From Bacteroidales bacterium (GTDB lineage Bacteria; Bacteroidota; Bacteroidia; Bacteroidales; UBA932): 64,000 nucleotides of DNA. The notes beneath the pieces were generated by a model. It did no database searches. It was given only the letters and a program-made list of their open reading frames with translations, and was not told where the DNA came from. Positions 5,104 to 43,895 of this stretch are shown here, one piece after another. A program made the position numbers and the translations under genes. Location of the stretch: contig JAFYEM010000023.1 in the NCBI GenBank assembly GCA_017544265.1, positions 188-64,187 on the forward strand, written 5' to 3'. How positions within the stretch are numbered: the first letter of the stretch is position 1; every line of letters begins with the position of its first letter.

Positions 5104-5124
5104 ACGGATTTTAAGAGATACTAA

Positions 5125-7140
<2,016 letters not shown>

Positions 7141-24314: not shown

Positions 24315-26390
24315 TTATAAGATAGCGGGGGATTGGGCTTTTTTAAATGTCATTTTGCTTCTTTCAGAAGGAACAACCTGATAGGTTGCGCGGACTTTGT
24401 GCTCAGGTTCAATCTCGACGCAGTTCTTTTTTGCATCGATACTCTTTGTGCCCTTTGCGAACTTCTTAAGGTTCTTGCTTGCAGAGGCTGCAGCGACTGC
24501 TTCATCCGGTGTCGGATAGATATCCGGATCTGCAAGAAGGATAGAGCGATACCCGGCAACTGTTGTGTACAGTTTATCTTCCTCTCCTTCTTCTTCAGCA
24601 AGCTGATATACATTGAACAAAATGCCGTCAAAGTTTATACCATAGTCGTTGCTATATTGTGGATAACCAACGAGTGCAATCAAACCTTCAGCAACATAAG
24701 CTCCGATAAGCGCGTAATTCAAGCTATAGAACGAATCTACGTTTGAAGCATAGAATTCAGGAATAAATCCAAGTCCGGCTAATTGCGGGATGGCAGACTC
24801 TTGATAGTCAGCTTTGTGAGAGTAGATTAATCCATTATATAAATCGAATACCACTGAATCGTCGTACTGATAGTATCCGCCTACGCCTAATCCGGGAAGT
24901 GAGTAGTAATCCTGACCCAAATCAGTGAATTGAGTGGAAAGTTGATACTCAACTTCGCTACCCCAGCCTTCCTTACCAAGAGCGATTGCGTAGACATCAT
25001 ATGTTTTATCTGTCAGCGCTTCAGCACTCAGCGGACCGACAAAATCAGCGGCTGAGTAGTCATCAATTGTGAGAGGATCCGGTTCGCCGACAAGGAAAGT
25101 CTCGTAGGCAATGAATTCAGGCTGGGCTTCGCCTTCAGCAAATGGAACCACAACTACAGTGTAGAAGGAGTTTGGTTCGAGAGCTATGCGGGCCTCGCCA
25201 CTGGCCTTGAGTTCAATAACTACCGGCCCGGCAGGCTCTTCACCTTCTTCTGATGCCCCGCCTTCTTCTGTTTCCTCATCACCTGAAGGAATGATTATAT
25301 CAATACCTGGTTGAGGATTCTTGCCCGGAACAAGAGCAACCTTTGCGGTTTCGACGTCCTTGCCAACAAAGTTGACATCAAACATGGCGAAGAGAGTGCC
25401 ATCAAGTTTGGAGTAAAGTCCAGTATACTCAACAGAAAGAGTGTAATCACCAAGAATGGCACCAGGAAGAGCGATACGGAATTTTCCGGCTTGATCGGCA
25501 TAATACAAACCATCATCATCCCCATAAATCATCTTCCCTTTAGGCATGGTGATTATTTTATCTTTAAGCCATCCGGTGTTTCCGGCCGTTTTTTGATCTT
25601 CAACAGTACTTCCATTTGCAATTGCATATCCGGCCAAGCTGCCTATACTCATCGATCCATATCCCCAGTCAAGAGAGTATGTAGTAATAGGAATCCAAAC
25701 GGCATCAGGATTTTCAGCGTGAACGTAGAAAAAGTTTTCCGCTTCTTTCGCAGGATCATATTTGGCGTCAGGATTATTGGCGTTATATGGAAACTTGTCA
25801 CCATAGGGGCTCTCTAATTTGTAGTAACCCTCATCGCTCATCCAAATATCCAGTTCATACTCAACTGCATCCATTTGATACATCGGGGCTACCATACTTT
25901 CGCGGAATTTCGCTTTTCCCTTGAGTTTAACCCATTCCTTTGGGGCTTCGGGACCAACAAAAACGATGCTCAGTCCATTTCCTCCGTAAGGTGTCGCACC
26001 CGCGGAAATTGCTATGTCAAGCCCGTATTTTTTAGACGGTTCAAACTTAGATGGATCCACAGGAATAACGATGTCGGCAGTTTCTGCTTCAGCATCAAAA
26101 ACAACTTCAATTTCCCCAATGCCTTCAGAATAAATGAGTTTTGTCGTATCAGTGATAGCAACTGTAGCAGTAACTGCCTCACTGGTGTTTCGACGATTAA
26201 GTTTGACAGTAATATCTTCCGACTCATCAGTCAAGGGAAAAGACTTAATCGTATTGGGATCGAAGAAGAATAATGGAGAGCTGGTATCTTCCGGCTCCGC
26301 CGGGACGTAGATGCCCTCCTTTACGGAGCAGGAATAAATCGCAGCACCGACAGTGAGGAAACTTACAATAAATATAATATATTTTTTCAT
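24315..26390 (-). CDS. Surface lipoprotein of left SusCD cassette (unknown function, Ig-like domains)
   Basis: Lipobox IYSC followed by an acidic export-signal-like stretch. Third gene of the left cassette, loosely paralogous to 37028..39211. Confidence 0.72.
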   Translation of the reverse strand: MKKYIIFIVSFLTVGAAIYSCSVKEGIYVPAEPEDTSSPLFFFDPNTIKSFPLTDESEDITVKLNRRNTSEAVTATVAITDTTKLIYSEGIGEIEVVFDAEAETADIVIPVDPSKFEPSKKYGLDIAISAGATPYGGNGLSIVFVGPEAPKEWVKLKGKAKFRESMVAPMYQMDAVEYELDIWMSDEGYYKLESPYGDKFPYNANNPDAKYDPAKEAENFFYVHAENPDAVWIPITTYSLDWGYGSMSIGSLAGYAIANGSTVEDQKTAGNTGWLKDKIITMPKGKMIYGDDDGLYYADQAGKFRIALPGAILGDYTLSVEYTGLYSKLDGTLFAMFDVNFVGKDVETAKVALVPGKNPQPGIDIIIPSGDEETEEGGASEEGEEPAGPVVIELKASGEARIALEPNSFYTVVVVPFAEGEAQPEFIAYETFLVGEPDPLTIDDYSAADFVGPLSAEALTDKTYDVYAIALGKEGWGSEVEYQLSTQFTDLGQDYYSLPGLGVGGYYQYDDSVVFDLYNGLIYSHKADYQESAIPQLAGLGFIPEFYASNVDSFYSLNYALIGAYVAEGLIALVGYPQYSNDYGINFDGILFNVYQLAEEEGEEDKLYTTVAGYRSILLADPDIYPTPDEAVAAASASKNLKKFAKGTKSIDAKKNCVEIEPEHKVRATYQVVPSERSKMTFKKAQSPAIL

Positions 26391-26407
26391 AATCTTCGAT
26401 TGTTAAA

Positions 26408-28024
26408 TTATGCATCTTCGTCTTCAACTGCTTTAGGAGAAGGAGCGGCAGGGTTGTTGTCAGCGTCGCTGAGCTTCTTGTTTGCGTTGATTTCAGTTTC
26501 AGGAATACGGTAAAGAAGAATGTCTGAACCCGCAGGAATATTAAATACTGCAGTTTTAGGGAATCCTGCACCACGGCGGTCAACATCTTTATTAAGACGC
26601 ATGATATCGAACCATGAAATACCTTCACCCCAGAATTCTATCCTTCTCTGACGGTATACCTCTTCTGCAATCTCATCACCGTCGGTTGAATCGAAAGCAT
26701 ATTCCGTATCACGGTATGTCTTAACAAAACCGGTGAGGGTTTCAAGGGCTGTCGCAGGATTGGTGTGTGCTTCGGCCTCAGCCTTAATCAGATAAAGTTC
26801 CTCAACACGGATAAGAGGGAGATCGTTAGCATTAACGGTTGTGCTGGCTTCATCCCTATAGGGAGCGAACTTGACTTGAGTGTATGGTTCATTACCAAAA
26901 TGGCTATCCATAACTTTGGCAAAATCCGCATTAAGAATATCAGAATGGCCTTCGGCATCCAACCACCATCCGTGTCGTGCATCAGAGATGGAAATCAAGC
27001 CGAACAGCTTCTTTGATATCAGGCGTCCACCTGAATACCAACCGTAACCGTAACTGAGGGATCCCATGTGGGAAGGAAAGTTGCAGATAGCAGACTCGAC
27101 AACATCATCCTTCTCATCAATGACATCTGCCCAAAGATAGGATGTCTCGTTAGCTGAATCCCAAAATAGCGGTCCTGATTTGAGTGTTGCAATCGAATAT
27201 GGGGCAAGCTTCTCTTTTTCAGCAAGAGCAAGAGCCTTGGCGGCATCTTCAGCTGCAGCTGTCCAGTTCTCGGTTGTCAGATTGAATCGGGCACGGAGAG
27301 CGTATGCGACAGCACTGTTGACATACCTTTTATCGATACGTTTATCGCCAGCAGCTTCTGCTTTTTCAAGAAAAGCAATAGCGTTGTCGATATCGGAGAA
27401 AATCTGCTCATAAACTTCTTTAACAGTGCTTCTGCCAATACCATCGTTAGCAGCCTCGAGAGCATTCTCGTCTGTTATAAGAGGAACGCATGGTGCATCC
27501 TGATGATCTGCATAATTAAACTGGAAAAGTTGAGCGAGTACCCAGTAGTCAAAAGCACGAACAGCGTATGCCTGTCCGATTAGTGACTGTACAGATACGA
27601 GAGGAGAATCCTTATCGTAGCTTTCAAGAAGTCCATTTGCTATCTTTAACTGCTTGTACATCCACATCCATATCATGTAAACCTCGTCACTGGAATAGTT
27701 GCGGCTTGAATACGTTACGGAAGCAGCAAACCAGTTATAACCAGAAGTGGAAGAAACCATATCGTAACCATTGCCGTCCAAAAGGAGCATGAGTCCGCCA
27801 TAACCGATATCGTTATGGTTACCGGAAATAGCACTCTGATATTCGTGGAACTGGAAATAGAGAGAATTGACGCCGGCGGTGGCTTTGGCGGGATCACGCT
27901 GGAGGACAGTCTCTTTCTGTTTAGTGGTGATAGTCGCACCGGAAGGTTCTGTCTCCAAAAAGTCGGAGCAACTGCTAAATACTAAAGCGGTCGCAAGGAG
28001 TGAAATGATATATCTTGTTTTCAT
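26408..28024 (-). CDS. SusD/RagB family lipoprotein (left cassette)
   Basis: Lipobox FSSC-SDFLETEP, GQAYAVRAFDYWVLAQLF, RVEELYLIKAEA, QRRIEFWGEGISWFDIMR. Confidence 0.93.
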   Translation of the reverse strand: MKTRYIISLLATALVFSSCSDFLETEPSGATITTKQKETVLQRDPAKATAGVNSLYFQFHEYQSAISGNHNDIGYGGLMLLLDGNGYDMVSSTSGYNWFAASVTYSSRNYSSDEVYMIWMWMYKQLKIANGLLESYDKDSPLVSVQSLIGQAYAVRAFDYWVLAQLFQFNYADHQDAPCVPLITDENALEAANDGIGRSTVKEVYEQIFSDIDNAIAFLEKAEAAGDKRIDKRYVNSAVAYALRARFNLTTENWTAAAEDAAKALALAEKEKLAPYSIATLKSGPLFWDSANETSYLWADVIDEKDDVVESAICNFPSHMGSLSYGYGWYSGGRLISKKLFGLISISDARHGWWLDAEGHSDILNADFAKVMDSHFGNEPYTQVKFAPYRDEASTTVNANDLPLIRVEELYLIKAEAEAHTNPATALETLTGFVKTYRDTEYAFDSTDGDEIAEEVYRQRRIEFWGEGISWFDIMRLNKDVDRRGAGFPKTAVFNIPAGSDILLYRIPETEINANKKLSDADNNPAAPSPKAVEDEDA

Positions 28025-28037
28025 ATCTCTCGGCGTT

Positions 28038-31000
28038 TTAGAAAGTTATATTAAGACCTCCTGATACGGTGCGGATAGGCGTGTATCTGGCTGTTGTTGA
28101 AGAAACATAGCTTTGGCGAGGGTCCAGGCCCTTGCGTGCAGATATAAGAGCTACATTGTCAGCTGTCACATAAATGCGGACCTTTGACAAGCCAATCTTA
28201 GAAATCCATTTCTCAGGAAGAGAATATCCGAAAGTAATATTATTCAGTGAGAGGTAATTAGAACTGGTCAAGAACCTTGTTGTAGTACCGTTGGAATACC
28301 TGTCCTCGCCGTTGATACGAGGAATATCGGTATCGGTATTCTCAGGAGTCCATGCTTTGCGGATATCTATGTGCCAGTTTTGACCCATGTAGTAGTAGTA
28401 TCCACTGTGCATCAGGCGCTGATAACCGGAGTCAAACATTTTTCCGCCGAGTTGATAGGACAGTGAAATGGATAAGTCAAATCCATACGCAGATACAGAA
28501 GTCCCAAAACCGCCGTAAACCTTAGGCATCAGGTTATCGGTGGCAATTTTGTGCTCTGAAGCTACCTGATAATCGGTGGTGGTGACGCGACTACCATCTT
28601 TGTCAGTTGTATAGAATAAAGGTGCGCCGGTCGCTTTGTCAACACCAGCCCATTCAACAAGGTAGAGTCTGTACATTGAGTAGCCTTCCTCAAGTATGGA
28701 GGTGCCGTCAATCATGCGATGACGTCCGTCTTCTACGGGAAGGTCGGGTGAAAGGCTGATAATCTTGTTATTGATGTTTGTGAAGTTGAAGAAAGCAGAC
28801 CAAACAACGTTGTTGGTGCGGATTATATCTCCTTTAAGTTCTAATTCGAGACCGTAGTTCTTCATTGAACCAATATTCATCGGAAGAGACGAATAACCAC
28901 TCACAAGAGGGGTCGGTTTGTAGTAGAGCATATTGTTAGACTGACGTCCGAAATACTCGATGGAACCTGAGAGACGGTCTTCAAATAAGGAGAAGTCTAA
29001 ACCAACATTGTAAGAGATTGATTTTTCCCATGTGAGGTCAGGATTACCCTTGAATGAAAGAACGCCGTCGGAGAAGAATCCGTTGGAACCGGAGAGTGAA
29101 TACTGGTCGAGGTAAGCATAGTTATTTCCGATCGCGTCATTGCCCTGCTGGCCGAAAGAGGCCTTAAGTTTGAGAAGGTTGACCCAGTTAACACTGTCCA
29201 TGAAACCTTCGGATGAGATCACCCACGCGGCAGATCCGTTGAGGAAGGCGCCCCAGCGGTTCTTGGGAGCGAATCTTGATGACGCATCCTCGCGGAAGCC
29301 GAAGCTCACCAGATACTTGTCGGCGAAACTATAGTTGGCCCTTGCAATGATTCCCAAAGTCGCGTATTTAGAAGCGCTGCCATAACCGTTCTTCTGGTCA
29401 ATTGCATTGCTGATATAGTATGACTGGGGGTCATAGAGATTTTGGCCCTGCGCACTCAGATTGGTGACTTTTAGCTGATAAGCATCAACACCGGCTGTAA
29501 AATCGAACTTGTGGATATTCTTGATAGCGAATTCGTAGTTTGCTATAAGCTGAAAGTCTAGGCCGCGGGTACGGGCAGAACTCTGGTATGCGGTTCCACC
29601 ATATTCTGCACTTTGGCCTATGTAAGCATTGCCGAGGTAGTTGTGACGGGTAAATTCAATGTCCATAGATGCATTGGCGTTGAGTGTGAAGCCCTTGAAT
29701 GGCTTTAACTCCGCGAAAGCAGAAAGTGCGAAAATATCCTTGCAGTATTCTTCCTTATTCCAGATGAGATCACCGACAGGATTGGCGATTTGCATGAATG
29801 TACGTTTTGAGGGAGATATTTTTCCGTCGCCGTAATCATAGACTTTTCGACCATTGTTCATCATAATATTTCCCTCTGCATCTCGGACATATACAGGATA
29901 TACCGGAGCGACAAAGTTTGCTATATAAAAAGCATTTACAGAAGACGTTGTGTTAGTCTGCTCGTCAGGATACTGGCTAAATGAGGAGCTATACGCAATG
30001 TTCCCGCCAATTTTGAGCCAATTCTTAACCTTATAGTCGGCCTTCAAACGGGCAGTCTCTCTGCGGAATCCTGAGTTAGAGATAACACCCTTGTCATCAA
30101 GGAAGCCGGCAGAAGCATAGAAACTGTAACGGTCGTTACCTGCCGTGGCGGAGACATTATATTCTTGACGAATTTTGTCCGCGAAGGTCTCCTTTGTCCA
30201 GTCATCGGGAGTGTAGTAGAAATTCCCATCACTGTAACCAAGGGTAGCTTTAGGGTTAATCTTACCATTTGCGCCAACGAGGTACTCGCCCTTTGGAACG
30301 GTAAAAATGGTGTAACCATAACCATAATCCCCACCGTTAAGGGCATATTTACTTGAAATACCTCCGTAGCTAACACCGTTGACCATTGCGGCAGCGGTGG
30401 CAGGGGAAGTACCGGCAGAAATAAGTTGATTATAAATCGCCAGGTAAGCAAGTTCTGTGTACTCGAAAGGAGAACTGAGTACGTCATAGTTCGTGACAGC
30501 TCGGCTATTGACACCAACACGTGCATCAATGTTGATTACCGCATGGCCGGCTTTACCTTTCTTGGTAGTAATGGTTACAACACCGTTCGCGCCACGGGCA
30601 CCATAGAGAGAGGTGGTAGCAGCATCTTTGGCAACCGTAATGGATTCGATGTCTTGAGCGTTGATGGAGGAAATGTCACCGTCGAAAGGGCGTCCATCCA
30701 CAACGTATAGCGGGTTGGCATCGGCATTGATGGAACCCACACCACGTACTCGGATAGTTGAACCCACGCCCGGCTGTCCGTTGTTACTGAGCACCTGAAC
30801 ACCTGCCATAGTTCCGGCCAGAGCATTGGTAACATTGGAGACCTGACGTTTTTCGATGGTCTCGGAATCCATCGAGCTCACTGAACCCGTGAACGTGCCT
30901 TTGGTGGAAGTACCATAGGCGGTAATAACGACCTCTTTCAAGAGTTTGGAGTCGGGTTCGAGGCTGATTAGGATGTCCGCCCCGGCATCCACTTCCTGAG

Positions 31001-31241
31001 ATTTCATTCCAATGAATGACACCAGAAGTTTTGCTCCGGAAGGAACATTGTTGAGGGTAAACGAACCGTCAACGTCTGAAACCGTTCCCTTGAGGTCTGT
31101 ACCCTGAACTGTAATGACTGCTCCGGCAACGGGCTCTCCGTCATCTGATGAACGAATCACGCCATGCACACGATTCTGTGCAAATGCGCTTATCGCCACT
31201 GCCAGAAAGCAGGTCAGGGTTAGCAAGATTTTTCTTGTCAT
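28038..31241 (-). CDS. SusC/RagA family TonB-dependent transporter (left cassette)
   Basis: LKEVVITAYG TonB box, PLYVVDG, KDAATTSLYGARGANGV, NPDLTWEK, C-terminal SGGLNITF. Confidence 0.96.
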   Translation of the reverse strand: MTRKILLTLTCFLAVAISAFAQNRVHGVIRSSDDGEPVAGAVITVQGTDLKGTVSDVDGSFTLNNVPSGAKLLVSFIGMKSQEVDAGADILISLEPDSKLLKEVVITAYGTSTKGTFTGSVSSMDSETIEKRQVSNVTNALAGTMAGVQVLSNNGQPGVGSTIRVRGVGSINADANPLYVVDGRPFDGDISSINAQDIESITVAKDAATTSLYGARGANGVVTITTKKGKAGHAVINIDARVGVNSRAVTNYDVLSSPFEYTELAYLAIYNQLISAGTSPATAAAMVNGVSYGGISSKYALNGGDYGYGYTIFTVPKGEYLVGANGKINPKATLGYSDGNFYYTPDDWTKETFADKIRQEYNVSATAGNDRYSFYASAGFLDDKGVISNSGFRRETARLKADYKVKNWLKIGGNIAYSSSFSQYPDEQTNTTSSVNAFYIANFVAPVYPVYVRDAEGNIMMNNGRKVYDYGDGKISPSKRTFMQIANPVGDLIWNKEEYCKDIFALSAFAELKPFKGFTLNANASMDIEFTRHNYLGNAYIGQSAEYGGTAYQSSARTRGLDFQLIANYEFAIKNIHKFDFTAGVDAYQLKVTNLSAQGQNLYDPQSYYISNAIDQKNGYGSASKYATLGIIARANYSFADKYLVSFGFREDASSRFAPKNRWGAFLNGSAAWVISSEGFMDSVNWVNLLKLKASFGQQGNDAIGNNYAYLDQYSLSGSNGFFSDGVLSFKGNPDLTWEKSISYNVGLDFSLFEDRLSGSIEYFGRQSNNMLYYKPTPLVSGYSSLPMNIGSMKNYGLELELKGDIIRTNNVVWSAFFNFTNINNKIISLSPDLPVEDGRHRMIDGTSILEEGYSMYRLYLVEWAGVDKATGAPLFYTTDKDGSRVTTTDYQVASEHKIATDNLMPKVYGGFGTSVSAYGFDLSISLSYQLGGKMFDSGYQRLMHSGYYYYMGQNWHIDIRKAWTPENTDTDIPRINGEDRYSNGTTTRFLTSSNYLSLNNITFGYSLPEKWISKIGLSKVRIYVTADNVALISARKGLDPRQSYVSSTTARYTPIRTVSGGLNITF

Positions 31242-31259
31242 AACAAAACGATTAGTTAA
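31230..31259. repeat. 30-bp perfect inverted repeat with 32166-32195 (shared 5'UTR + start codon of the two susC genes)
   Basis: ttttcttgtcataacaaaacgattagttaa is the reverse complement of ttaactaatcgttttgttatgacaagaaaa. A further 14-bp IR lies at 31266-31279 / 32151-32164. Confidence 0.95.
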
Positions 31260-31286
31260 GTTTAAAATAAATACACTACCAACCGG

Positions 31287-31312
31287 ATTAAGAAAACGTC
31301 CGTTTTCTTGTT
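31287..31312 (-). promoter_or_regulatory. Left serine-invertase crossover site (hix/gix/Mpi-like)
   Basis: attaagaaaacg-TC-cgttttcttgtt: 9-bp palindromic arms around an asymmetric dinucleotide (31299-31300). Contains AAACGTCCGT. Confidence 0.82.
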
Positions 31313-31916
31313 ACACATTGATAATGTCATTGATGAACCTCCTTACTGTTTGTCTGGACACCTTTAATTTTCGCGCTGCTTCGGAAATCGTCACGCCCGC
31401 CTCTATCATTTCTTTCAATTGCTGCCTTTTTGAGTAGAGCTTGTAGCACCGAGGAGATGATTTATGACCGGCGGGGCGTCCTAGTATAACGCCTTCCGCA
31501 CGCTTGCGTTGAAGTGCTTCTTTTGTTCTTTGGCTGATCAGATTTCGCTCTATTTCTGCAGACAACCCGAATGCAAAGGCAAGAACCTTGCTTTGGATAT
31601 CGTCGCCAAGACGATAGCCATCCTTTATAGTCCAAACCTTACAACCGCGTGACATACAGAAACTTAATACCTCCATAATCATAAAAAGGCTTCGTCCCAA
31701 TCGCGAAAGTTCTGTGCAAATCATAATGTCTCCTCTATGCAATTGCTGCAGAAGTCTTCCAAGACGGCGTTGCTTGTAGTTTTTTAGTCCACTGGTTGTT
31801 TCTTCAATCCAGAAATCGATTCTCAAGCCATTTGAAATACAGAATTGATTTATCTCAAATCTTTGATTATCAAGGGTCTGTTTATCGCTGCTGACCCGCA
31901 TGTAGCCATAAATCAT
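31311..31916 (-). CDS. mpi: Serine recombinase, Mpi-like DNA invertase
   Basis: MIYGYMRVSSDKQ (catalytic Ser), ELSRLGRS, YRLGDDIQSKVLAFAFGLSAEIERNLISQRTKEAL, LGRP and a C-terminal HTH. Closely matches my recollection of Bacteroides fragilis Mpi. Confidence 0.9.
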   Translation of the reverse strand: MIYGYMRVSSDKQTLDNQRFEINQFCISNGLRIDFWIEETTSGLKNYKQRRLGRLLQQLHRGDIMICTELSRLGRSLFMIMEVLSFCMSRGCKVWTIKDGYRLGDDIQSKVLAFAFGLSAEIERNLISQRTKEALQRKRAEGVILGRPAGHKSSPRCYKLYSKRQQLKEMIEAGVTISEAARKLKVSRQTVRRFINDIINV

Positions 31917-32070
31917 AGCAAGTTTGGTTTAAAAGTTTTAAGTTAAGATATGTTATTAAATAAGGGAAATAACTGTCGATTTGAAAGTGAAATTTAGGGA
32001 ATTTTATCTGTTTTTTTAGAAAAATACGGCTAATTCTCGCATTCAGACGCAATTAGGGCTGAAATTACAA

Positions 32071-32102
32071 TTTGTAATTCTAATTTTTTTTTTCCAACTT
32101 TG
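32071..32102 (+). promoter_or_regulatory. Bacteroidetes sigma-A-type promoter inside the invertible segment, currently facing the right susC
   Basis: TTTG at 32071-32074, a 20-nt spacer, then CAACTTTG at 32095-32102 (one mismatch to TAnnTTTG). Ends 13 nt before the right crossover site. Confidence 0.7.
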
Positions 32103-32115
32103 CGCGTAAATCCGG

Positions 32116-32141
32116 TTTGAAAAAACGGACGTTTGATCCGA
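32116..32141 (+). promoter_or_regulatory. Right serine-invertase crossover site (hix/gix/Mpi-like)
   Basis: tttgaaaaaacg-GA-cgtttgatccga, central GA at 32128-32129. Its reverse complement contains AAACGTCCGT. Confidence 0.82.
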
Positions 32142-32183
32142 CCGGGTTGTGTAGTGTATTTATTATTAACTAATCGTTTTGTT

Positions 32184-35100
32184 ATGACAAGAAAACTACT
32201 GCTTGTTCTGACCTGTACGATAATGGGGATGGGCATTGCCCTCGCACAGTCCCGCGTGAGCGGTACCGTTGTGTCCTCAGAAGACGGTGAACCGGTTGCC
32301 GGTGCCATCGTTACCGTGCAGGGAACAGACCTGAAAGGAACTGTCACGGACGCTGAAGGACGCTTCTCCATCGACAAGGTCGCGTCCGGTGCCACCCTCC
32401 AGATTTCTTTCATCGGTATGAAAACGAAAGAAGTTGCAGCGGGAGCCAATCTGGATATTGTGCTCGAGCCCGATAGCAAACTTCTGAAGGAAGTCGTCAT
32501 CACGGCCTACGGTACCTCCACAAAGGGAACGTTCACAGGCTCCGTGAGTTCGATGGATGCCGAGACCATTGAAAAACGTCAGGTCTCCAATGTCACCAAC
32601 GCCCTCTCCGGTACTATGGCCGGTGTCCAGGTACTCAATTCCAACGGACAGCCGGGCGTAGGTTCCACAGTCCGCATCCGCGGTGTGGGTTCCATCAACG
32701 CCGGTTCCGCCCCTCTGTACATCGTGGACGGTATGCCTTTCGACGGTGACATTTCCTCAATCAATTCGCAGGACATCGAGTCCATTACGGTTGCAAAGGA
32801 TGCTGCCACCACCTCTCTCTACGGTGCGCGCGGTGCCAACGGTATCGTCATCATCCAGACCAAGAAAGGTAAGGCCGGAAGGGCTGTCGTGAATATCGAC
32901 GCCCGCGTCGGTGTGAACAGCCGTGCAATCAAGAACTACGACGTCCTCTCCTCGCCGGACGAGTACACCGAGCTCGCTTACAAGGCAATCTACAACCAGC
33001 TGCTTGCGACCTACGACCCTGCGACCGCGCAGGCTTATGCCAATGGTCCCATCTACGGCGGTATTGCTTCCAGCAGCGATATCGGCATCACAGGTATTTC
33101 CGCAGGTTACGGTTATCCTATTTACACCGTTCCCCAGGGTCAGTATCTGATTGGTACCGACGGTCGCCTGAATCCCCACGCGACCCTCGGCTACAGCGAC
33201 GGAACGTACTATTACACTCCCGACGACTGGGCCAAGTACACCTTCAAGGATCAGATCCGCCAGGAATACAACGCCAGCGTCTCCGCGGGCGGCGACCGCT
33301 ACAGCATCTACGCTTCCGCGGGCTACCTGGACGACAAGGGTGTCATCCGCAATTCCGGGTTCAACCGTACCAGCGCCCGTTTGAAAGCTGACTATAAGGT
33401 AAAGGACTGGCTCAAGATCGGCGGTAACGTCGCTTATTCATTCTCATACAGCCAGTATCCGGACGAGCAGACCAATACCACCTCTTCCGGCAACGCCTTC
33501 TTTGTCGCGAACTTCATCGCTCCCGTCTATCCGATTTTCGTGCGCGACACCAAAGGCAATATCGTTACCTCCAACGGCCGTCAGGTCTATGACTATGGTG
33601 ACGGCGTTTCCGCCGGAAACTCCCGTGCCTTCATGTCCATCGCGAACCCTGCCGGTGACCTTATATATAATAAGGAAGAATACTGCATGGATATCTTCTC
33701 GCTGGGCGCCTTCGTCGAGTTGAAACCCTTCAAGGGCTTCACCCTCACCGGGAACTTCGGCATGGACCTGGATTTCACCCGCTACAACAACCTCGGCAAC
33801 GCATATTTCGGACAGAGTGCGAGCTACGGCGGTACTGCCTACCAGGCATCCTCCCGTACCCGCGGATTCGACTATCAGGTCATAGCCAACTACGAGGTCG
33901 CCATCAAGGCTCTCCACAAACTGGACTTCACCCTCGGTATCGACAACTACGAGTACAAGTATGCGACCATCAGCGCACAGGGGCAGAACCTGTACAATCC
34001 CGAGTCCTTCTATGTCTCGAACTCCATCGACCAGAAGAACGGCTACGGCAGCGCCACCACATACAAGACCTTCGGCGCCTTCTTCAGGGCCAACTACAGC
34101 TATGCTGACAAATATCTCGTGAGTCTTGGTTTCCGCGAGGACGGTTCTTCCCGCTTCGCTCCCAAGAAGCGCTGGGGTTCCTTCCTTTCCGGTTCCGCGG
34201 CATGGGTAATCTCCTCCGAGGGCTTCATGGACGGCGTGGACTGGGTCAACCTCCTGAAACTCAAGGCTTCCTACGGACAGCAGGGTAATGACGACATCGG
34301 CAACTACTACGCCTACCTGGACCAGTATTCAGTTTCCGGTGCCAACGGCCTCTTCTCCGACAGCGTTCTTGCCTACAAGGGTAATCCCGACCTGACCTGG
34401 GAAAAATCCATTTCCTACAACATCGGTCTCGACTTCTCTCTCTTCGACGACCGTCTGAGCGGTTCCATCGAATACTTCGGCCGTCAGTCCAACGACATGC
34501 TTTACTACAAGCCCACTCCTCTGGTGAGCGGTTACTCATCCATCCCCATGAACGTCGGTTCCATGAAGAACTACGGCGTAGAGCTCGAACTCAAGGGAGA
34601 CATGGTCCGCACCCAGGACATCGTCTGGTCTGCGTATCTGAACCTCACCAACGTCAACAACAAGATCGTCAAGCTCCACGAGGACCTCGGCGGCAAGTGG
34701 ATCAACGGCGCCTTCATCTATGAAGAGGGCCAGTCCCGCTACCGTATGTACATAGTCGAATGGGCTGGCGTCGACAAGGAGACAGGTGCACCTCTCTTCT
34801 ACACGGTCAAGGATGGCGAGAGGGTGACCACCACCAACTACCAGAATGCATCCGAGAACGGCCTTATAGCGACCGACAACCTGATGCCCAAGGTCTATGG
34901 CGGTTTCGGTACCTCTCTCCAGGCTTTCGGCTTCGACCTCTCCGTATCGCTTTCCTACCAGCTTGGCGGAAAGATCTACGACAGCGGTTATGCCCGCCTG
35001 ATGCACAGCGGTTACAAATCCTACATGGGTAACAACTGGCACAAGGATATCCGCAAGGCATGGACTCCCGAGAACACCGACACGGATGTTCCCCGTCTGA

Positions 35101-35375
35101 ATGCTGCCGACCAGTATTCAAACTACACTTCCACAAGGTTCCTGACCAGCTCCAACTATCTCTCGCTGGACAACATCACCTTCGGTTACTCCCTTCCCCA
35201 GAAGTGGCTGTCAAAGGCGCACATCTCCAAGATCCGTATCTATGCGACCGCGGACAATGTCGCCCTTCTCTCCGCCCGCAAGGGCCTCGACCCCCGTCAG
35301 AGCTTCACCTCTGCGACTACGGCTCTCTATACGCCGATCCGTACCATCTCCGGTGGTCTTAACATAACCTTCTAA
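32184..35375 (+). CDS. SusC/RagA family TonB-dependent transporter (right cassette)
   Basis: Real start MTRKLL at 32184. Same motifs as the left susC (LKEVVITAYG, NPDLTWEK, SGGLNITF), with long identical peptide stretches. Confidence 0.96.
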   Translation: MTRKLLLVLTCTIMGMGIALAQSRVSGTVVSSEDGEPVAGAIVTVQGTDLKGTVTDAEGRFSIDKVASGATLQISFIGMKTKEVAAGANLDIVLEPDSKLLKEVVITAYGTSTKGTFTGSVSSMDAETIEKRQVSNVTNALSGTMAGVQVLNSNGQPGVGSTVRIRGVGSINAGSAPLYIVDGMPFDGDISSINSQDIESITVAKDAATTSLYGARGANGIVIIQTKKGKAGRAVVNIDARVGVNSRAIKNYDVLSSPDEYTELAYKAIYNQLLATYDPATAQAYANGPIYGGIASSSDIGITGISAGYGYPIYTVPQGQYLIGTDGRLNPHATLGYSDGTYYYTPDDWAKYTFKDQIRQEYNASVSAGGDRYSIYASAGYLDDKGVIRNSGFNRTSARLKADYKVKDWLKIGGNVAYSFSYSQYPDEQTNTTSSGNAFFVANFIAPVYPIFVRDTKGNIVTSNGRQVYDYGDGVSAGNSRAFMSIANPAGDLIYNKEEYCMDIFSLGAFVELKPFKGFTLTGNFGMDLDFTRYNNLGNAYFGQSASYGGTAYQASSRTRGFDYQVIANYEVAIKALHKLDFTLGIDNYEYKYATISAQGQNLYNPESFYVSNSIDQKNGYGSATTYKTFGAFFRANYSYADKYLVSLGFREDGSSRFAPKKRWGSFLSGSAAWVISSEGFMDGVDWVNLLKLKASYGQQGNDDIGNYYAYLDQYSVSGANGLFSDSVLAYKGNPDLTWEKSISYNIGLDFSLFDDRLSGSIEYFGRQSNDMLYYKPTPLVSGYSSIPMNVGSMKNYGVELELKGDMVRTQDIVWSAYLNLTNVNNKIVKLHEDLGGKWINGAFIYEEGQSRYRMYIVEWAGVDKETGAPLFYTVKDGERVTTTNYQNASENGLIATDNLMPKVYGGFGTSLQAFGFDLSVSLSYQLGGKIYDSGYARLMHSGYKSYMGNNWHKDIRKAWTPENTDTDVPRLNAADQYSNYTSTRFLTSSNYLSLDNITFGYSLPQKWLSKAHISKIRIYATADNVALLSARKGLDPRQSFTSATTALYTPIRTISGGLNITF

Positions 35376-35388
35376 TATGCAGCGCGAT

Positions 35389-37008
35389 ATGAAAACAAGA
35401 TTTATCACAGTTTCCATTCTTGCCGGAGCTCTCTGCCTCTGGAGCTGCTCTGACATGCTTGAGACCGAGCCCAATGGCTCGACCATCACTGCTTCGCAGA
35501 AAGAGAAGACACTTAAGAATGACCCTTCCAAGTCATCTGCAGGCGTCAACTCCCTCTACGCACAGTTCAATGAGGTCTTCGGTGTCGTTTCGGGCGACCG
35601 CCACAACGATATCGGTTTCCCTGCGAACATAATTTTCATGGACGCCAACGGCGAGGACCTCGTTTCCGCCGGTAACGGATACAACTGGTTCAACTCCTCG
35701 GTGGATTTCTCTTCGAGAGACTATCAGGACGAAGCCGCAATCCTTGTCTGGTCCAACCTTTACAAGATAATCGCCAACTGCAACAACATCCTTGCCGTTG
35801 CAGACCGCGAAACCTCGAATCCCGATGCCCTTTCCGCTAACGGACAGGCTCTCGCCCTCCGTGCATTCGCGTACTGGGAACTGGCCCAGTTGTATGCCTT
35901 CCACATCAAGGGACATGAGACTGACGCCTGCGTTCCGCTCGTGCTTGAGTCCAATAAGGACGAACTTGCCCTTATGGGTATCGAAAGGAGCACCGTCGCC
36001 AAAGTCTATGAGCAGATTACTGAAGACATCGACGAAGCCATCGTGGCCCTGGATAAGGCTGCTGCCGAAAAGGTAAAGCGTGGTGACAAACGTTATATCA
36101 ACAACACAGTCGCCTACGGTCTCCGTGCTCGTATCAACCTTACGTTGGAGAACTGGTCTGCTGCCGCGTCCGATGCCGCCAAGGCAATCGAACTTGCCGA
36201 AGCTGAAGGTATCAGGCCTTATTCCATCAAGGAACTTGCCGATCCGTCAAGCTTCATCCTCATGGATTCAAGTGAGCCTTCTTACGTCTGGGCTGACATA
36301 ATCGCCGAAACCGACGACGTGGTCGAGACCGGTATCTGCAACTTCTCCTCCCACATGGGTTCCATGAACTATGGCTACGCCTCCTACGCCGAGGGTCGTG
36401 CAATCAGCAAGAAACTGTTTGCCACTATCGCCGACAACGACGTCCGCAAGGGCTGGTGGCTGGATGAGAGCGGTCTTTCCGCCAATATCTCCGCCGAGGC
36501 CAACGCCTACATGGCAGACAACTATTCCAACCTTGCCCGCCTCCAGGTCAAGTACGGCCCCTACAAGGGTGAACTCGGTACTTCCACCAATGCCTGCGAC
36601 GTCCCGCTCATGCGCGTGGAGGAACTCTATCTCATCAAGGCGGAAGCTCTTGGCCGCGACAACACCTCCGCAGGTGTTAGTGCTCTCAATGATTTCGTTT
36701 CCACCTACCGTCAGCCGGGTTACTCCTTCGCTGCTTCCAGCGCCGACGCTTTTGTCGACGAGGTTTTCCGCCAGAGGAGAATCGAACTCTGGGGAGAGGG
36801 CCTGAACTGGTTTGATATTATGCGTCTGAACAAGGGTATCGACCGCCGCGGCTGCGGATTCGAAGCTACCGCTGTATTCAATATTCCCGCCGGGGCCCAG
36901 ATTCTGCTCTGGAGAATTCCCAAGGCTGAAATTGAATCCAACCCGAAGATCTCCGAATCCGACAACAACCCTTCGGCTGATAAACCGGAACCTGTCAAGG
37001 ATATTTAA
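35389..37008 (+). CDS. SusD/RagB family lipoprotein (right cassette)
   Basis: Start MKTRFI at 35389 (or 35377). Lipobox LWSC-SDMLETEP, GQALALRAFAYWELAQLY, RVEELYLIKAEA, QRRIELWGEGLNWFDIMR. Confidence 0.93.
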   Translation: MKTRFITVSILAGALCLWSCSDMLETEPNGSTITASQKEKTLKNDPSKSSAGVNSLYAQFNEVFGVVSGDRHNDIGFPANIIFMDANGEDLVSAGNGYNWFNSSVDFSSRDYQDEAAILVWSNLYKIIANCNNILAVADRETSNPDALSANGQALALRAFAYWELAQLYAFHIKGHETDACVPLVLESNKDELALMGIERSTVAKVYEQITEDIDEAIVALDKAAAEKVKRGDKRYINNTVAYGLRARINLTLENWSAAASDAAKAIELAEAEGIRPYSIKELADPSSFILMDSSEPSYVWADIIAETDDVVETGICNFSSHMGSMNYGYASYAEGRAISKKLFATIADNDVRKGWWLDESGLSANISAEANAYMADNYSNLARLQVKYGPYKGELGTSTNACDVPLMRVEELYLIKAEALGRDNTSAGVSALNDFVSTYRQPGYSFAASSADAFVDEVFRQRRIELWGEGLNWFDIMRLNKGIDRRGCGFEATAVFNIPAGAQILLWRIPKAEIESNPKISESDNNPSADKPEPVKDI

Positions 37009-37027
37009 TCATTAACGGGCTAAGATT

Positions 37028-39211
37028 ATGAAAACATTCAAATATTTAGTTTATACCCTTGCCGCGGCCTTGACCGTCGCGTCCTGCGCCAAGGAAAAGG
37101 AGAACGAGTACCAGGCTGTTCCGGCCCCGAAAGGGGACGAGGTTATTTTCGCTCCCATCTCCGAACTTGAGAACTTCGACAAGGTTACGGGTGTCGTCAG
37201 CCTTACCGGCAATGAAGACGGCTACTTCAATGTCTTTCTCAAGAGAGAGAAGGCGGAGAAGATGTCCCTTGTGCAGGTCGAGTCCTCCGCAGATGAAATC
37301 TTTACCGTGCCCTCTTCCGCCATCTTCGAGAAAGGCGAGAAACAGACTGCAATAAAGATTGAATTCGACCCCGAGGAAATCGAGTCTCAGAAAGCCTACG
37401 ACTTCACCCTCACCATCAGCGGAGCACCTGTCTCCAAATATGCTGTCTCCACTATCAACTTCCAGGCCGGCGACGTCCTTCCCCTGGAATGGCACAAGTG
37501 GAAGAAGGGTCACATGACGGAAGGTTTCTGGGGTGAAGAAGAGGATGAGGATATGTACTATGCGGTTGTGGACGCCGACAAGGATTCCAAAGAACTTTTT
37601 GCAAGTTTTGCCGGTGAAAGCGATCCTATCACAGCTTTCCAGAAGGAATGGAAACCTGGCGACAACAGTTATCTCGACCTCTACTGCTATATTGAGAACT
37701 GCTTCGACACTATGGGCGATGCCGATCCCACGAATTACTATTTTACCTGGCATCTGAAAGACAACTCCATTTCTATTGCGCCGCAGTACATGGGTTGGAC
37801 TAATTCTTCTGGAGTTCCTGTCTATTTCCTCGATGCGGCTCATTATCCTATGACTGCGGCAGGATGGGATGAAGCTCGGGCTATAGCCTGGGCAAAGAGC
37901 AACGGCTTAGCTCTTCCTTATTATGATGGAAACGGCGGATTCTATCTCGCAGACTGGTACATGACAAATATCGCCACCGGCAACGGTTATCAATTTGGTG
38001 GCAATCCCGATGTCTTCATTGCCGAAGGCTTCGTCCGCACCGTGGATTACAACCCTTCCAAAGAGGTCTATTCTTACAAAGACTTCATGTCCGGTTCCGT
38101 TGAATCCATCGGCCTTGGCCGCAGCTGGGAAGATCAACCGCTTCAGATTAATGAATATGCTGCTTCGAGCGATGACAAGGCCCTCTACTATCTTCCCGAC
38201 TACTTCGGTGAGGACCTGGGCCTTGCTTTCACCGGACCCCTGCAGGGCAACCTCAAGGACGGTCTTCCTATCCAGGGCGTAGCCAACGAGCAGCCCACCG
38301 GCATGGAGTATGGCGGAAAGCCCCTCTTTGCTGTGGTTACCGGCGGCAAGATCACCGTTGAAGACGGTAATTACGTATTCACCATCAAAGTCCAGTACGA
38401 GACCATGGCCCCGAGCGAGGACGATCCCGAAAAGCTTGTTGTCTTTGGCACCCTTCCCGAGGTCGAGGAAATCTTCACTTCCAGCTATGTCGCCGAGTAC
38501 TATTCGGACTACCAGATTGAGCCTGTAAAGAGCAAGAGGGATTTGTTCGGTGTTTACAAAGCAACAGCTACTTCTTTCTTAAACGGTCCTCTCGATCTTG
38601 AACTTACCATCACTGAAGGTTACTGGAACGAAGACCGTACCGAGCAGTATGTAAATATCTCCGGCCTTACCGGGGGCAATCTTCCGATTGACGATACCGT
38701 TTACGCTCTTTATGAGGACGGATTTATTGTACTTGAGGCCCAGACCTTCTTCGGCCCGTATATGGCTGGTGCTTACTACTGCCTGGTGGATCCTCTGGCA
38801 TCTGCTGATTTGGCGACAAGTACCAACCTTATCGGCGGTATCTACACCGACCCTGACACCAAGGCCCAGAAGCTGGTCTTTGTGGGCGACGGCTCCTTTA
38901 CCGATGGTTTCTATTTCTACCCGTATTCTCCATCTTCCGGTCCTGCAGGGACTTTCGACTTCGTGTTTGATGTCTTTGCGGACTATACCGGTCACGAAGT
39001 TATCGAGGAGGAGGTTGATGAGCCCGCTGCGGCTCCCGCCAAGCTCTCCCTTCCCAAGAACAGCAAGCCTGCCGTTTCTTTCGACGGCAATATGCTCCGC
39101 AATCTTGGAAAGAAGAGCCACAAGGCCGTCCCTTCCCGTTCCTTCGCGCTTACTTTCCCTGAAAGAGGTTCAAGGAATCTGGAACCTAAATCTTTTGTAA
39201 GTATCCGTTAA
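37028..39211 (+). CDS. Surface lipoprotein of right cassette (unknown function)
   Basis: Lipobox VASC-AKEKENE, acidic, with an N-terminal Ig-like region similar in layout to 24315..26390. Confidence 0.72.
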   Translation: MKTFKYLVYTLAAALTVASCAKEKENEYQAVPAPKGDEVIFAPISELENFDKVTGVVSLTGNEDGYFNVFLKREKAEKMSLVQVESSADEIFTVPSSAIFEKGEKQTAIKIEFDPEEIESQKAYDFTLTISGAPVSKYAVSTINFQAGDVLPLEWHKWKKGHMTEGFWGEEEDEDMYYAVVDADKDSKELFASFAGESDPITAFQKEWKPGDNSYLDLYCYIENCFDTMGDADPTNYYFTWHLKDNSISIAPQYMGWTNSSGVPVYFLDAAHYPMTAAGWDEARAIAWAKSNGLALPYYDGNGGFYLADWYMTNIATGNGYQFGGNPDVFIAEGFVRTVDYNPSKEVYSYKDFMSGSVESIGLGRSWEDQPLQINEYAASSDDKALYYLPDYFGEDLGLAFTGPLQGNLKDGLPIQGVANEQPTGMEYGGKPLFAVVTGGKITVEDGNYVFTIKVQYETMAPSEDDPEKLVVFGTLPEVEEIFTSSYVAEYYSDYQIEPVKSKRDLFGVYKATATSFLNGPLDLELTITEGYWNEDRTEQYVNISGLTGGNLPIDDTVYALYEDGFIVLEAQTFFGPYMAGAYYCLVDPLASADLATSTNLIGGIYTDPDTKAQKLVFVGDGSFTDGFYFYPYSPSSGPAGTFDFVFDVFADYTGHEVIEEEVDEPAAAPAKLSLPKNSKPAVSFDGNMLRNLGKKSHKAVPSRSFALTFPERGSRNLEPKSFVSIR

Positions 39212-39230
39212 ACCCTGAATCTTCCAAGTT

Positions 39231-41429
39231 ATGAAAAAGTATATTTATTATCTTATGGCCTTTGCCGCGCTGGCAGCAGTTTCCTGCCAGCCGGAGAAGA
39301 AGCAGGCTGAGGAGGAAGAGATTGAAGGTTCTGTGGAATTTTCGGTCAACCCCACCTGCGTGGTTCCCGCCGATGGTGCCGAGGCTGTCGAACTGAGCGT
39401 AATCTCCAATGTTCCCTTCGAACCGATTATTGAAGAGGGCGCCGATTGGCTTCGCCTCGTGGAAGATGGAAAGGCTGAGACTGCAGCATCTTCTTTCATC
39501 ATTTCCGTTGATCCCCAGCCCGATGCTGACAGTCCTTCCCGTTCTGCGGTAATTACCTTCAAAAATACTGAGTCCCTTGAAGTCATATCGACCAAGATGT
39601 CTGTGCTGACTGTTATCCAGACGGATGCCAAGGGCCTTTCGATATCCATTACCCAGCCCGGTGCCGTCAGCTTCGAGGGTGCATTCCTTGATGATGATGA
39701 TGCACTTGAAGTAAAGTACAAGTCCAATATTCCGATTGCTCCTTATTTCCCTCCTCTCAAAGAGGGTGCTTCAGCAAAGGAATTTGCTGAGTACGAGGCT
39801 GCTTACGGCTGGATTGAGTGGGATGAAGAGGATAGTTCCTACGATGCGGCTAAAGGTGAGGGCGTTTTCGTTTTCGAAATCGACTCCAATGATACTTCCA
39901 AGGAACGTTCTGCGACTCTCGGAATCATCCGTCTGGACAAGGAATTCGCCAAGGAAGAGGATGCCATCGTCGAAGGCAAGAGCATAGTCATCTCCCAGGA
40001 AGCCAAAATCGGCCAGATGATTTTGTCTATTGAAGATGGAGCTGTCCTCAGTGCCCTGGATATTCTTCCTCCTGCAGGCGGTGATGCATCGTTCGACTAT
40101 TATGCAACCTGCCCTGTGGAGCCTTACTTCGCGGAAGGCGGCGAACTTGAGTATGAAATCATTGCCGGTGCTCCCCTCAACACTATTAAATTCAAGGTCC
40201 CTGCAAACTCCTCTGAGGAAGCTGTCGCTTACCTTATATATTTCAAGGATGCAAGCGAGCCTGAGAAGGAAGAAGGCGACGAGCCCAAGTCCGCGAGGGC
40301 CAAAAAAGAGGTCGTCCTTCTCAGGGATATTTACACCGGAGAGTTGATTTCCGCGAATATCCTTGTCCAGGCAGGTCTCATCGGTTTTGAACTGGCGGAG
40401 AAAGATCCCTTCGATCTTGAGTTCGGAAATTCAATAGCCCTGACGCCCGTATTCAATCCCGAGGGAGCCGGCGACGGCCGTGTGATTGAATGGACTTCAT
40501 CCGATCCCGAAGTTCTCTCCGTGGAGGACGGTATGGTGACCGCAGTCGGTGTCGGCACCGCCACAATCACCGCCGAGGTCGAAGACTTCTCTGCAAGCGT
40601 TGAAATCACCGTTCCTTGGGCTGTTGCGCTTGATCAGGATGAACTTGAACTAATCGTTGGTAAGAGCGCTACCCTTGTGGCAAGCTTCCTTCCTGAGGAA
40701 CTTGCAGATGTCAAGACTATTGAGTGGTCTTCATCAGATGAGTCAGTAGCTACTGTTGTTGACGGTGTCGTTACTGCTGTCGCAGAAGGTGATGCTGTCA
40801 TCTATGCAACGTCTGGTGATAAGTCTGCCAAATGCGCAGTCAGTGTCTTCCAGTACATCGCATTGTACGCGAATGACCTGAATGAGAGTCTTGAGGGTTG
40901 GTTAATCTTTGATGAAGATGATGACGGAAATACATGGGGATGGTATTATCTGACCGATCAGATTGCGGATCCTGTACTTAAGAGCTTCTCTTGGTCCAGC
41001 GGTGCACTGAATCCTGACAACTGGGCGTTATCTCCAGCAGTTGAACTTATGGAAGATTCCAATTATCTCACTCTTGATATCATAGACAGCGGATACAAGG
41101 ATAACATGGCAATATATGTTGCAGATGCAGAGGCAGTCGAAGCAAATGAAACTGATCCGTTGTCAGAGTTTAAGGATGTCCTGATTGATCAGGCTTTTGA
41201 TGGATGGGATACTTATACCTTCCCGATTCCTGAGAAGTTCAACGGCAAGTCTGTAATGTTTGCTTTCCGCCACTATAATTGCACTGATCTCTACTGGATT
41301 GCTATTAATGATATTCTTGTTTCCTATGGTAATCCTTACCCTGATGTGGCACCAGCTCCTGCAAAGCGCAATATTTCCTTTGCGTCAAGCCGTGAGGCCA
41401 GGGTTATTGAATCAGTTATAGCGAAATAG
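39231..41429 (+). CDS. Surface lipoprotein with BACON-like repeats, two Big_2 Ig domains and a C-terminal cleaved-adhesin (gingipain/haemagglutinin-like) domain
   Basis: Lipobox AVSC-QPEKKQAEEEE. Two W(T/S)SSD..V..V.DG.VTAV repeats. C-terminal GWLIFDEDDDGNTW...LNPDNWALSP...FAFRHYNCTDLYWIAINDI. Confidence 0.75.
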   Translation: MKKYIYYLMAFAALAAVSCQPEKKQAEEEEIEGSVEFSVNPTCVVPADGAEAVELSVISNVPFEPIIEEGADWLRLVEDGKAETAASSFIISVDPQPDADSPSRSAVITFKNTESLEVISTKMSVLTVIQTDAKGLSISITQPGAVSFEGAFLDDDDALEVKYKSNIPIAPYFPPLKEGASAKEFAEYEAAYGWIEWDEEDSSYDAAKGEGVFVFEIDSNDTSKERSATLGIIRLDKEFAKEEDAIVEGKSIVISQEAKIGQMILSIEDGAVLSALDILPPAGGDASFDYYATCPVEPYFAEGGELEYEIIAGAPLNTIKFKVPANSSEEAVAYLIYFKDASEPEKEEGDEPKSARAKKEVVLLRDIYTGELISANILVQAGLIGFELAEKDPFDLEFGNSIALTPVFNPEGAGDGRVIEWTSSDPEVLSVEDGMVTAVGVGTATITAEVEDFSASVEITVPWAVALDQDELELIVGKSATLVASFLPEELADVKTIEWSSSDESVATVVDGVVTAVAEGDAVIYATSGDKSAKCAVSVFQYIALYANDLNESLEGWLIFDEDDDGNTWGWYYLTDQIADPVLKSFSWSSGALNPDNWALSPAVELMEDSNYLTLDIIDSGYKDNMAIYVADAEAVEANETDPLSEFKDVLIDQAFDGWDTYTFPIPEKFNGKSVMFAFRHYNCTDLYWIAINDILVSYGNPYPDVAPAPAKRNISFASSREARVIESVIAK

Positions 41430-41449
41430 TTTATCACATCTTTCTAATC

Positions 41450-41482
41450 GACCGGTCCGTTTTTTGCGGACCGGTCTTTTTT
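41450..41482 (+). terminator. Rho-independent terminator closing the right cassette
   Basis: 10-bp stem gaccggtccg / cggaccggtc followed by T6. Confidence 0.88.
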
Positions 41483-43812: not shown

Positions 43813-43895
43813 GCGGATGTGGTGAAATGGTAGACACGCTACTTTGAGGGGGTAGTGGGCGATGGCCCGTGAGAGTTCGACTCTCTCCATCCGCA
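43813..43895 (+). tRNA. tRNA-Leu(GAG)
   Basis: Acceptor GCGGATG/CATCCGC, D-loop TGGTAGAC, anticodon arm CTACT-TTGAGGG-GGTAG, long variable arm, T-loop GTTCGACT, discriminator A. CCA is not encoded. Confidence 0.95.

Follow-up and report, generated by a model that had tools for sequence, protein, structure and literature searches.

How is one of two complete sets of outer-membrane transporter genes selected when both diverge from the same few hundred nucleotides? This question is raised by a locus on contig JAFYEM010000023.1 (assembly GCA_017544265.1) of a Bacteroidales bacterium of the UBA932 lineage, of which a stretch of 64,000 nucleotides (contig positions 188 to 64,187, referred to as the window and numbered from its first letter) has been analysed. 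Between positions 24315 and 41482, two operons encoding SusC transporters, SusD-like proteins and further lipoproteins diverge from a central segment of ~830 bp, with three genes on the left and four on the right. A first-pass annotation, made from the letters alone, had described an 831-bp invertible centre bounded by inverted crossover sites, with breakpoints at 31299/32129, which would carry a serine invertase of the Mpi family and a single outward promoter between two paralogous cassettes. The present analysis leads to the conclusion, held with good confidence, that the locus is a site-specific inversion switch, in which an Mpi-family invertase and an outward promoter are located on one segment whose inversion alternates two transporter operons. 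The segment and its borders comprise the following features.

31293-31306: left recombination site, AAAACG-TC-CGTTTT, crossover dinucleotide at 31299-31300 (13-nt inverted repeat, contig breaks and inverted junction contigs).
32122-32135: right recombination site, AAAACG-GA-CGTTTg, crossover dinucleotide at 32128-32129 (13-nt inverted repeat, contig breaks and inverted junction contigs in runs X4, X9 and X13).
31311-31916, minus strand: Mpi-family serine DNA invertase of 201 amino acids (aa), with catalytic Ser9 in YMRVSS and a C-terminal helix-turn-helix (HTH).
31917-32121: intergenic control region within the segment, which holds the outward promoter and must also hold the leftward invertase promoter, at a position not located.
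32071-32102, plus strand: candidate outward Bacteroides-type promoter, with a -33 TTTG at 32071-32074, a 20-nt spacer and a -7 box CAACTTTG at 32095-32102.
31242-31292, minus strand: left 5' leader, paralogous to the right leader, with AGTGTAT and TATTTAT..TTAAAC motifs (flank and family alignments).
32136-32183, plus strand: right 5' leader (flank and family alignments).

The borders of the segment are formed by a perfect 13-nt inverted repeat, AAACGTCCGTTTT at 31294-31306 and its reverse complement at 32122-32134, and no further copy of this 13-mer occurs elsewhere in the 64-kb window. Both sites are 6+2+6 dyads with an asymmetric centre, TC on the left and GA on the right, and are thus in inverted orientation, an anatomy that would be expected of serine-invertase crossover sites. 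Between the site centres (31299/31300 and 32128/32129), with which the breakpoints of the first-pass annotation coincide, the segment measures ~830 bp. In PMC8375218, the Bacteroides fragilis Mpi inverted repeat is quoted as ARACGTTCGTN, which the half-sites AAACG/CGTTT of the window match. When compared to the consensus ARACGTWCGT quoted there, the window site AAACGTCCGT agrees at 9 of 10 positions, with the mismatch at W, inside the central dinucleotide (TC, not TT/TA). The right site together with its adjoining T run (32126-32140, minus strand) also scores as a terminator-like hairpin for transcription coming from the right flank.

Inversion of the segment takes place in natural populations, as revealed by public contigs and by Logan unitigs from the goat, sheep and bovine gut metagenomes in which the locus is carried. 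The exact invertase protein is present on five public contigs (L081-L085). The long scaffolds L081 and L082 have the window orientation, and two others represent the flipped form: L083, a Logan contig of 2106 nt from three samples, agrees with a window flipped in silico at 2085 of 2105 ungapped positions and with the native window at 1494, while the corresponding values for L084 are 996 and 405 of 1011. The fifth, L085, consists of the inner segment only (31308-32120), the contig being broken at both sites, and unitigs of goat and other gut metagenomes end exactly at 31294, 31306, 32122 and 32134. Native and inverted junctions have been detected together in X9, where all four junction types are present as 47-nt unitigs (depth 3.5 and 9.7 native, 9.6 and 2.1 inverted), in X4 (2.6-5.7 native, 3.4 inverted) and in X13 (2.0 native, 4.1 inverted). 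In every inverted junction, the bases directly outside the 13-nt core stay with their flank, which places the exchange inside the core. Contigs from X1-3, X7 (16x) and X8 (12x) are in the window orientation only; contigs drop minor variants, so that the other orientation may be present in these runs as well. The first-pass annotation had proposed looking for both orientations in metagenomes and for a flipped locus elsewhere, and both were found; the feature lies far beyond chance, since the predicted rearrangement has been physically seen in public data.

The position of the outward promoter is indicated by comparison with relatives of the locus. The candidate ends 21 nt upstream of the AACGGACG core, and its significance derives from conservation in an alignment of the window with the strain variant L089 and the diverged loci L086, L101/L102 and L104. 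A -33 TTG, a -7 CTTTG, the ACGGAC core and one leader motif are invariant in this alignment and the spacing from promoter to core is fixed at 21 nt, all else having drifted. The single outward promoter claimed at first is therefore probably this -33/-7 pair, kept in four relatives at 21 nt from the core, an assignment made through sequence conservation only. A metagenome scan for the promoter/site module TTTTNNCAACTTTG-N21-AACGNACG returned seven matches, which were rejected as chance, as they encode neither an invertase nor a SusC.

The leaders downstream of the two sites are 49-52 nt long and, together with the SusC 5' ends, are paralogous, forming inverted repeats with 71-79% identity. Two motifs outside the crossover are kept in the 5' untranslated regions of all switched SusC genes (window 32151-32175 and 31250-31279; L086 8819-8875; L101 6860-6920; L104 6830-6890). 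One, GTAGTGTAT, lies 21 nt past the site core in the window and 5-6 nt past it in loci with a sister-clade invertase (described below), and the other, TATTTATnnTTAAC, lies ~25 nt ahead of the start codon. These motifs are candidates for an RNA leader element or for an accessory protein site. Strain variants have also been observed (run X8; contigs L089 and L099), in which ~125 unrelated nucleotides replace 31920-32046 upstream of the invertase start, with promoter, site and leader being kept; L089 and L099 start at an identical base within the segment.

The operons that the promoter would serve are composed of the following features, the right one being closed by a terminator.

28038-31241, minus strand: left SusC/RagA TonB-dependent transporter, 1067 aa (TIGR04056, 739 bits).
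26408-28024, minus strand: left SusD-like lipoprotein, 538 aa (Pfam SusD-like_3 and SusD_RagB).
24315-26390, minus strand: left gene 3, a 691-aa predicted surface lipoprotein (open reading frame; signal peptide followed by Cys).
32184-35375, plus strand: right SusC/RagA transporter, 1063 aa (TIGR04056, 769 bits).
35377-37008, plus strand: right SusD-like lipoprotein, 543 aa (Pfam).
37028-39211, plus strand: right 727-aa predicted lipoprotein (open reading frame).
39231-41429, plus strand: right 732-aa lipoprotein with BACON, Big_2, Cleaved_Adhesin and choice-of-anchor J domains (Pfam/NCBIfam).
41450-41476, plus strand: strong intrinsic terminator at the end of the right operon (11-bp stem with 8 G-C pairs, T run).

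For the right SusC, the list of open reading frames gives a TTG start at 32133, and the homologous start is the ATG at 32184. The two cassettes are indeed paralogous, with 75% identity between the SusC proteins and 53% between the SusD proteins, and no relatedness has been detected by blastp between the accessory lipoproteins of the left and right sides. For the 691-aa and 727-aa lipoproteins, comparison with Pfam, NCBIfam and PDB sequences gave no match, even at E=1.

In the mechanism proposed for this locus, the invertase would most likely bind both sites, cut at the asymmetric central dinucleotide and rotate the segment. With the segment oriented as in the window, transcription from the promoter would cross the right site and a leader of 49 nt and enter the right SusC/SusD/727-aa/732-aa operon; after inversion, transcription from the same promoter would cross the left site and a paralogous leader of 52 nt and enter the left SusC/SusD/691-aa operon. 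A population would in this way split into cells showing one or the other set of transporter and surface lipoproteins. The embedded enzyme is presumably the agent of flipping, and expression of the cassettes is likely to be mutually exclusive. In each of two metatranscriptomes, X26 (sheep) and X27 (bovine), three contigs match the right cassette in full and no such contig falls in the left cassette, with only a few contigs of the same strain in the other 40 kb of the window, which fits weakly with a right-on, left-off state in the prevailing orientation.

Several points weigh against this reading. The DNA evidence consists of assembled contigs and unitigs and not of raw reads, so that the orientation ratios are rough, and the -7 box CAACTTTG agrees with 5 of the 6 specified positions of TAnnTTTG. 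The RNA evidence amounts to six low-depth contigs from samples whose orientation is not known, for which reason we infer alternative expression instead of asserting it. A second, global Mpi encoded outside the visible 64 kb could be the real catalyst. Lastly, the 'off' cassette may not be silent, with the invertase gene reading toward the left SusC without a terminator.

The last of these points belongs to a graded alternative, in which both cassettes would always be transcribed, one from the strong promoter and one through read-through from the invertase gene, with inversion exchanging high and low. Between the invertase stop (31311) and the start of the left SusC there are 69 nt, of which 4 precede the left site, and this stretch holds no terminator-like hairpin, so that the invertase transcript probably enters, at a low level, whichever cassette is 'off'. 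Nonetheless, this alternative is considered unlikely, as the metatranscriptome contigs are confined to the right cassette and recombinase genes are usually expressed weakly; moreover, invertase and promoter share one direction in the sister-clade relatives, so that the off cassette there receives nothing. The either/or output claimed by the first-pass annotation has thus gained right-cassette-only transcripts as weak support and lost some of its sharpness, since the switch may swap high and low rather than on and off, a wording as accurate as 'either/or'.

The identity of the embedded enzyme bears on the agent of inversion. The protein scores 311 bits on the NCBIfam model NF009949, 'master DNA invertase Mpi family' (cut-off 272), as its earlier assignment to this family would have it. 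Pfam Resolvase covers residues 2-143 and the HTH residues 161-197, and when aligned end to end with gamma-delta resolvase and Gin, Ser9 takes the catalytic position. A reading as an IS607-like transposon was rejected, considering the order of the domains (catalytic, then HTH), a score of 41 bits on the IS607 model against a cut-off of 110 and the fact that the segment keeps to one locus. Median identity to the proteins of the Mpi clade is 67%, whereas members of that clade are ~80% identical among themselves. The enzyme's own protein cluster has three members, followed by thousands of Mpi-family proteins at 58-70% identity.

An alternative in which the embedded gene is a passenger and the segment is flipped in trans by a recombinase from elsewhere, such as a global Mpi, draws on the case of B. 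fragilis, where mpi lies head-to-head with tsr19 and outside all 13 regions that its product flips in trans (PMC4747536). The half-sites of the window do resemble the Mpi consensus, and the visible genome is limited to 64 kb. On the other hand, the embedded invertase is of a diverged lineage (67% to the Mpi clade) that has been met with this segment alone, the TC/GA centre of the sites differs from the TT/TA of the Mpi consensus, and every sampled sister-clade relative is likewise coupled to its own promoter/site module, all of which makes the passenger role doubtful. Whereas the 'master' Mpi acts in trans, the gene in the window sits inside its own invertible segment, with no extra site copy in the 64 kb, although its product may also act globally on sites farther away in the genome.

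A scan of a genome collection with the invertase protein yielded at least 80 Mpi-clade loci (L001-L080) at 63-69% identity, and closer relatives than these may exist in the collection. Among the 80 listed, none has a SusC within 10 kb, and neither a gene-flanking repeat of 15 nt or more (the longest being 14 nt) nor a site motif was found around the gene. Taken together with the location of B. fragilis mpi outside its targets (PMC4747536), this indicates that an Mpi-proper enzyme inside its own segment is unusual. In these 80 loci, the contig ends less than 200 bp past the invertase stop in 24 cases and less than 200 bp before the start in 2, and no repeat just 3' of the mpi genes that could cause such breaks was found in loci with long flanks. 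One of the loci (L040) has tandem Mpi-clade invertase genes at 10001-10585 and 11768-12352, ~1.2 kb apart.

Relatives of the whole module, as opposed to the enzyme, were reached by a search with the right SusC. In L086/L087, a SusC with 77% identity heads a four-gene operon from which a second SusC/SusD operon diverges, and the space between them is occupied by the same promoter module, by the gene for a serine invertase of 208 aa and by a perfect inverted repeat of 63 nt that ends in AATCGTCCGTTA. The L086 invertase is ~40% identical to the window enzyme, scores 264 bits on NF009949, just below the cut-off, and is encoded in the same direction as the promoter. It belongs to a sister clade, in which its relatives at 67-77% identity score 248-265 bits (under the cut-off of 272) and median identity is 73% within the clade and 48% to the Mpi clade; identity to the window enzyme is ~45%. 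All six sampled members of this clade, as well as L086, adjoin a SusC/SusD operon, and their invertases read toward it except in L100, where the contig ends 196 nt past the invertase.

The sister-clade loci differ in the extent to which they resemble the window. L086, L101-103 and L104 are two-sided. In L110/L111, a one-sided arrangement is present, with a 932-bp invertase and promoter segment between AAACGTTCGTTTTTT repeats (the canonical Mpi consensus; site AAACGTTCGT); a SusC/SusD operon adjoins this segment at one end only, and at the opposite end lies a gene for an HflX-like GTPase. L107, L112 and L113 have a PDDEXK_2-family gene between the invertase and the left SusC and a degenerate right site (AAAGGGTCGTTT); no left partner site was found in these three, and they may represent a locked or decayed switch. 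A further divergent SusC/SusD pair, L097/L098 (SusC 60% identical), is not a member, as its spacer (4900-5447, 548 nt) holds neither an invertase nor an Mpi-like site; this spacer is AT-rich, and an inverted repeat of 26 nt is made up of the start codons and 14 nt of leader.

L101 and L102/L103 represent one locus from different samples, in which a segment of ~1,040 bp is present in opposite orientations. Its sites share only TATACGGAC (9 nt), and the half-sites CGTATA or CATTTT swap right after the central GA, which is the clearest sequence-level evidence of a serine-type crossover among these modules. Sequence data can place the exchange within 13 nt in the window and, in L101/L102, within 9 nt whose end lies just past GA, but do not resolve the cleavage positions themselves. 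Across the modules, half-sites are constant and the centre varies: GA/TC in the window, L086, L101 and L104, AA/TT in L110 (5902-5916 and 6819-6833) and GT/AC in L100 (~5960 and 6740). Given this pattern, the centre may insulate the switches from one another.

The same comparison bears on a third alternative, that the two orientations belong to co-existing strains which differ by an old, static rearrangement and that no reversible switch exists. Metagenomes do hold several strains, as single-nucleotide polymorphisms reveal, and contigs cannot show reversibility. Still, no fewer than three independent samples hold the two orientations at intermediate ratios, and the allele on the inverted junctions is that of the respective sample (31282T in X9, 31282A in X4), a finding in favour of flipping in situ and against admixture of one fixed inverted strain. 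The two-state pattern also recurs at a different locus of another organism (L101 vs L102/L103), and the invertase reading frame and both sites of the window are intact, so that static strains are a very improbable explanation. Homologous recombination that depends on RecA and joins the paralogous leaders and the 5' ends of the SusC genes, of the kind known from Campylobacter fetus sap, can be dismissed with near certainty in spite of the 71-79% identity of these inverted repeats, as an exchange inside the core, with the bases immediately outside it not moving, excludes recombination between the leaders, and as the 9 nt shared by L101/L102 are far too short for this process and have at their centre a dyad-symmetric site, as is typical for serine recombinases.

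The site-specific switch proposed here may not be confined to one genome. With confidence evenly divided, the window can be regarded as one of a class of autonomous switches, widespread in uncultured gut Bacteroidales and not described so far, in which an Mpi-like invertase and a promoter between short dyad sites toggle or turn on operons for SusC/SusD and surface lipoproteins, and in which differing centres would prevent cross-reaction between switches and with the global Mpi regulon. Within this class, the window would be a hybrid, with an Mpi-proper enzyme replacing the sister-clade enzyme in the opposite orientation; no other case with an Mpi-proper enzyme was found, and invertase and promoter of the window diverge. 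Segments of this kind would have escaped inverton surveys in which the repeat spacing is capped below 830-1040 bp.

The genes adjoining the two operons encode peptidases and an FtsX-type permease, and no regulator gene is present beside either operon among the neighbouring genes. A tRNA gene at 43813-43895 is the sole Rfam match in the window.

Nutrients enter Bacteroidota mainly by way of SusC/SusD complexes, which are also known as phage receptors and antigens. A compact module flipping one promoter between two transporter/lipoprotein sets would offer a simple, heritable and reversible means of surface diversification without a regulator, and such modules seem to be frequent among ruminant-gut lineages for which cultured models are lacking. 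They would widen Mpi biology from a trans-acting 'master' enzyme to private switches encoded in cis, and they suggest a rule by which the crossover dinucleotide sets site orthogonality and hence the number of serine-invertase switches per genome. A self-contained module of ~0.83 kb could also become a portable two-output genetic toggle for Bacteroides engineering.

When compared to known systems, the locus shares features with several of them. The Salmonella Hin/hix/fljBA switch likewise consists of a ~1-kb invertible segment, which carries an outward promoter together with the gene for the small serine invertase that flips it and is bounded by short inverted sites with a 2-bp crossover centre, and its inversion alters the surface protein that is made. 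In Hin, however, one operon is turned ON or OFF and the other flagellin is repressed by FljA, whereas the promoter of the window faces a second complete operon when flipped; invertase and promoter have the same direction in Hin and diverge in the window, and the 26-bp hix sites contrast with 14-bp Mpi-type dyads. The Hin-like architecture built from an Mpi-family enzyme, as first put forward, therefore applies to the placement of both elements inside the inverting segment and not to their relative direction. A truly Hin-like layout is found in the sister-clade modules (L086, L100-L114), where the invertase is ~45% identical to the window enzyme, scores below the NF009949 cut-off and shares the direction of the promoter; these modules otherwise resemble the window in their homologous promoter, the 21-nt spacing to an ACGGAC-type core, homologous leaders and SusC/SusD targets.

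With B. fragilis Mpi, the window has in common the NF009949 family, the AAACG/CGTTT half-sites, a promoter-bearing region of ~200 bp and targets concerned with surface structures. Mpi is nevertheless a global enzyme acting in trans, the ON/OFF promoters that it flips belong mostly to capsule loci, and its sites have TT/TA centres, whereas in the window the gene lies inside the segment, the targets are SusC/SusD operons on two sides and the centre is TC. To our knowledge, SusC/SusD operons have so far been known to vary through tyrosine recombinases, either as shufflons (Tsr0667) or by small promoters flipped in trans. The Tsr0667-type shufflons of B. fragilis and B. thetaiotaomicron use a tyrosine recombinase and AGTYYYN4GDACT repeats, moving gene segments relative to a fixed promoter; no tyrosine recombinase gene is present among the annotated genes of 24315-41482, and the repeat has a single, chance-level match in the window, at 48474.

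The claim that no example of this layout had been described agrees with the literature consulted, in which no published description of the window or sister-clade layout was found, including two recent reviews (PMC12632263, PMC11868660) and two inverton surveys (PMC9881135, PMC11892184), although prior mention in older papers is possible; it needs amending in that the layout is no one-off, related modules being present in other uncultured gut Bacteroidales. According to the survey that dates from 2025, invertases near invertons generally lie outside them and are not regulatable by them.

The C. fetus sap inversion is RecA-dependent and has no dedicated invertase, the recombination taking place in conserved 5' coding regions on an element of 6.2 kb. 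The sapA system nonetheless resembles the window in its output, a single promoter on an invertible segment between opposed paralogous surface-protein cassettes giving an either/or choice. By analogy, the logic of the window may be described as that of Hin, with invertase and promoter in the segment, joined to the cassette choice of C. fetus sap and carried out with an Mpi-type enzyme and sites on SusC/SusD operons. What is apparently new is this Mpi-type variant of a Hin-like switch, part of a broader and apparently undescribed family in uncultured ruminant-gut Bacteroidales.

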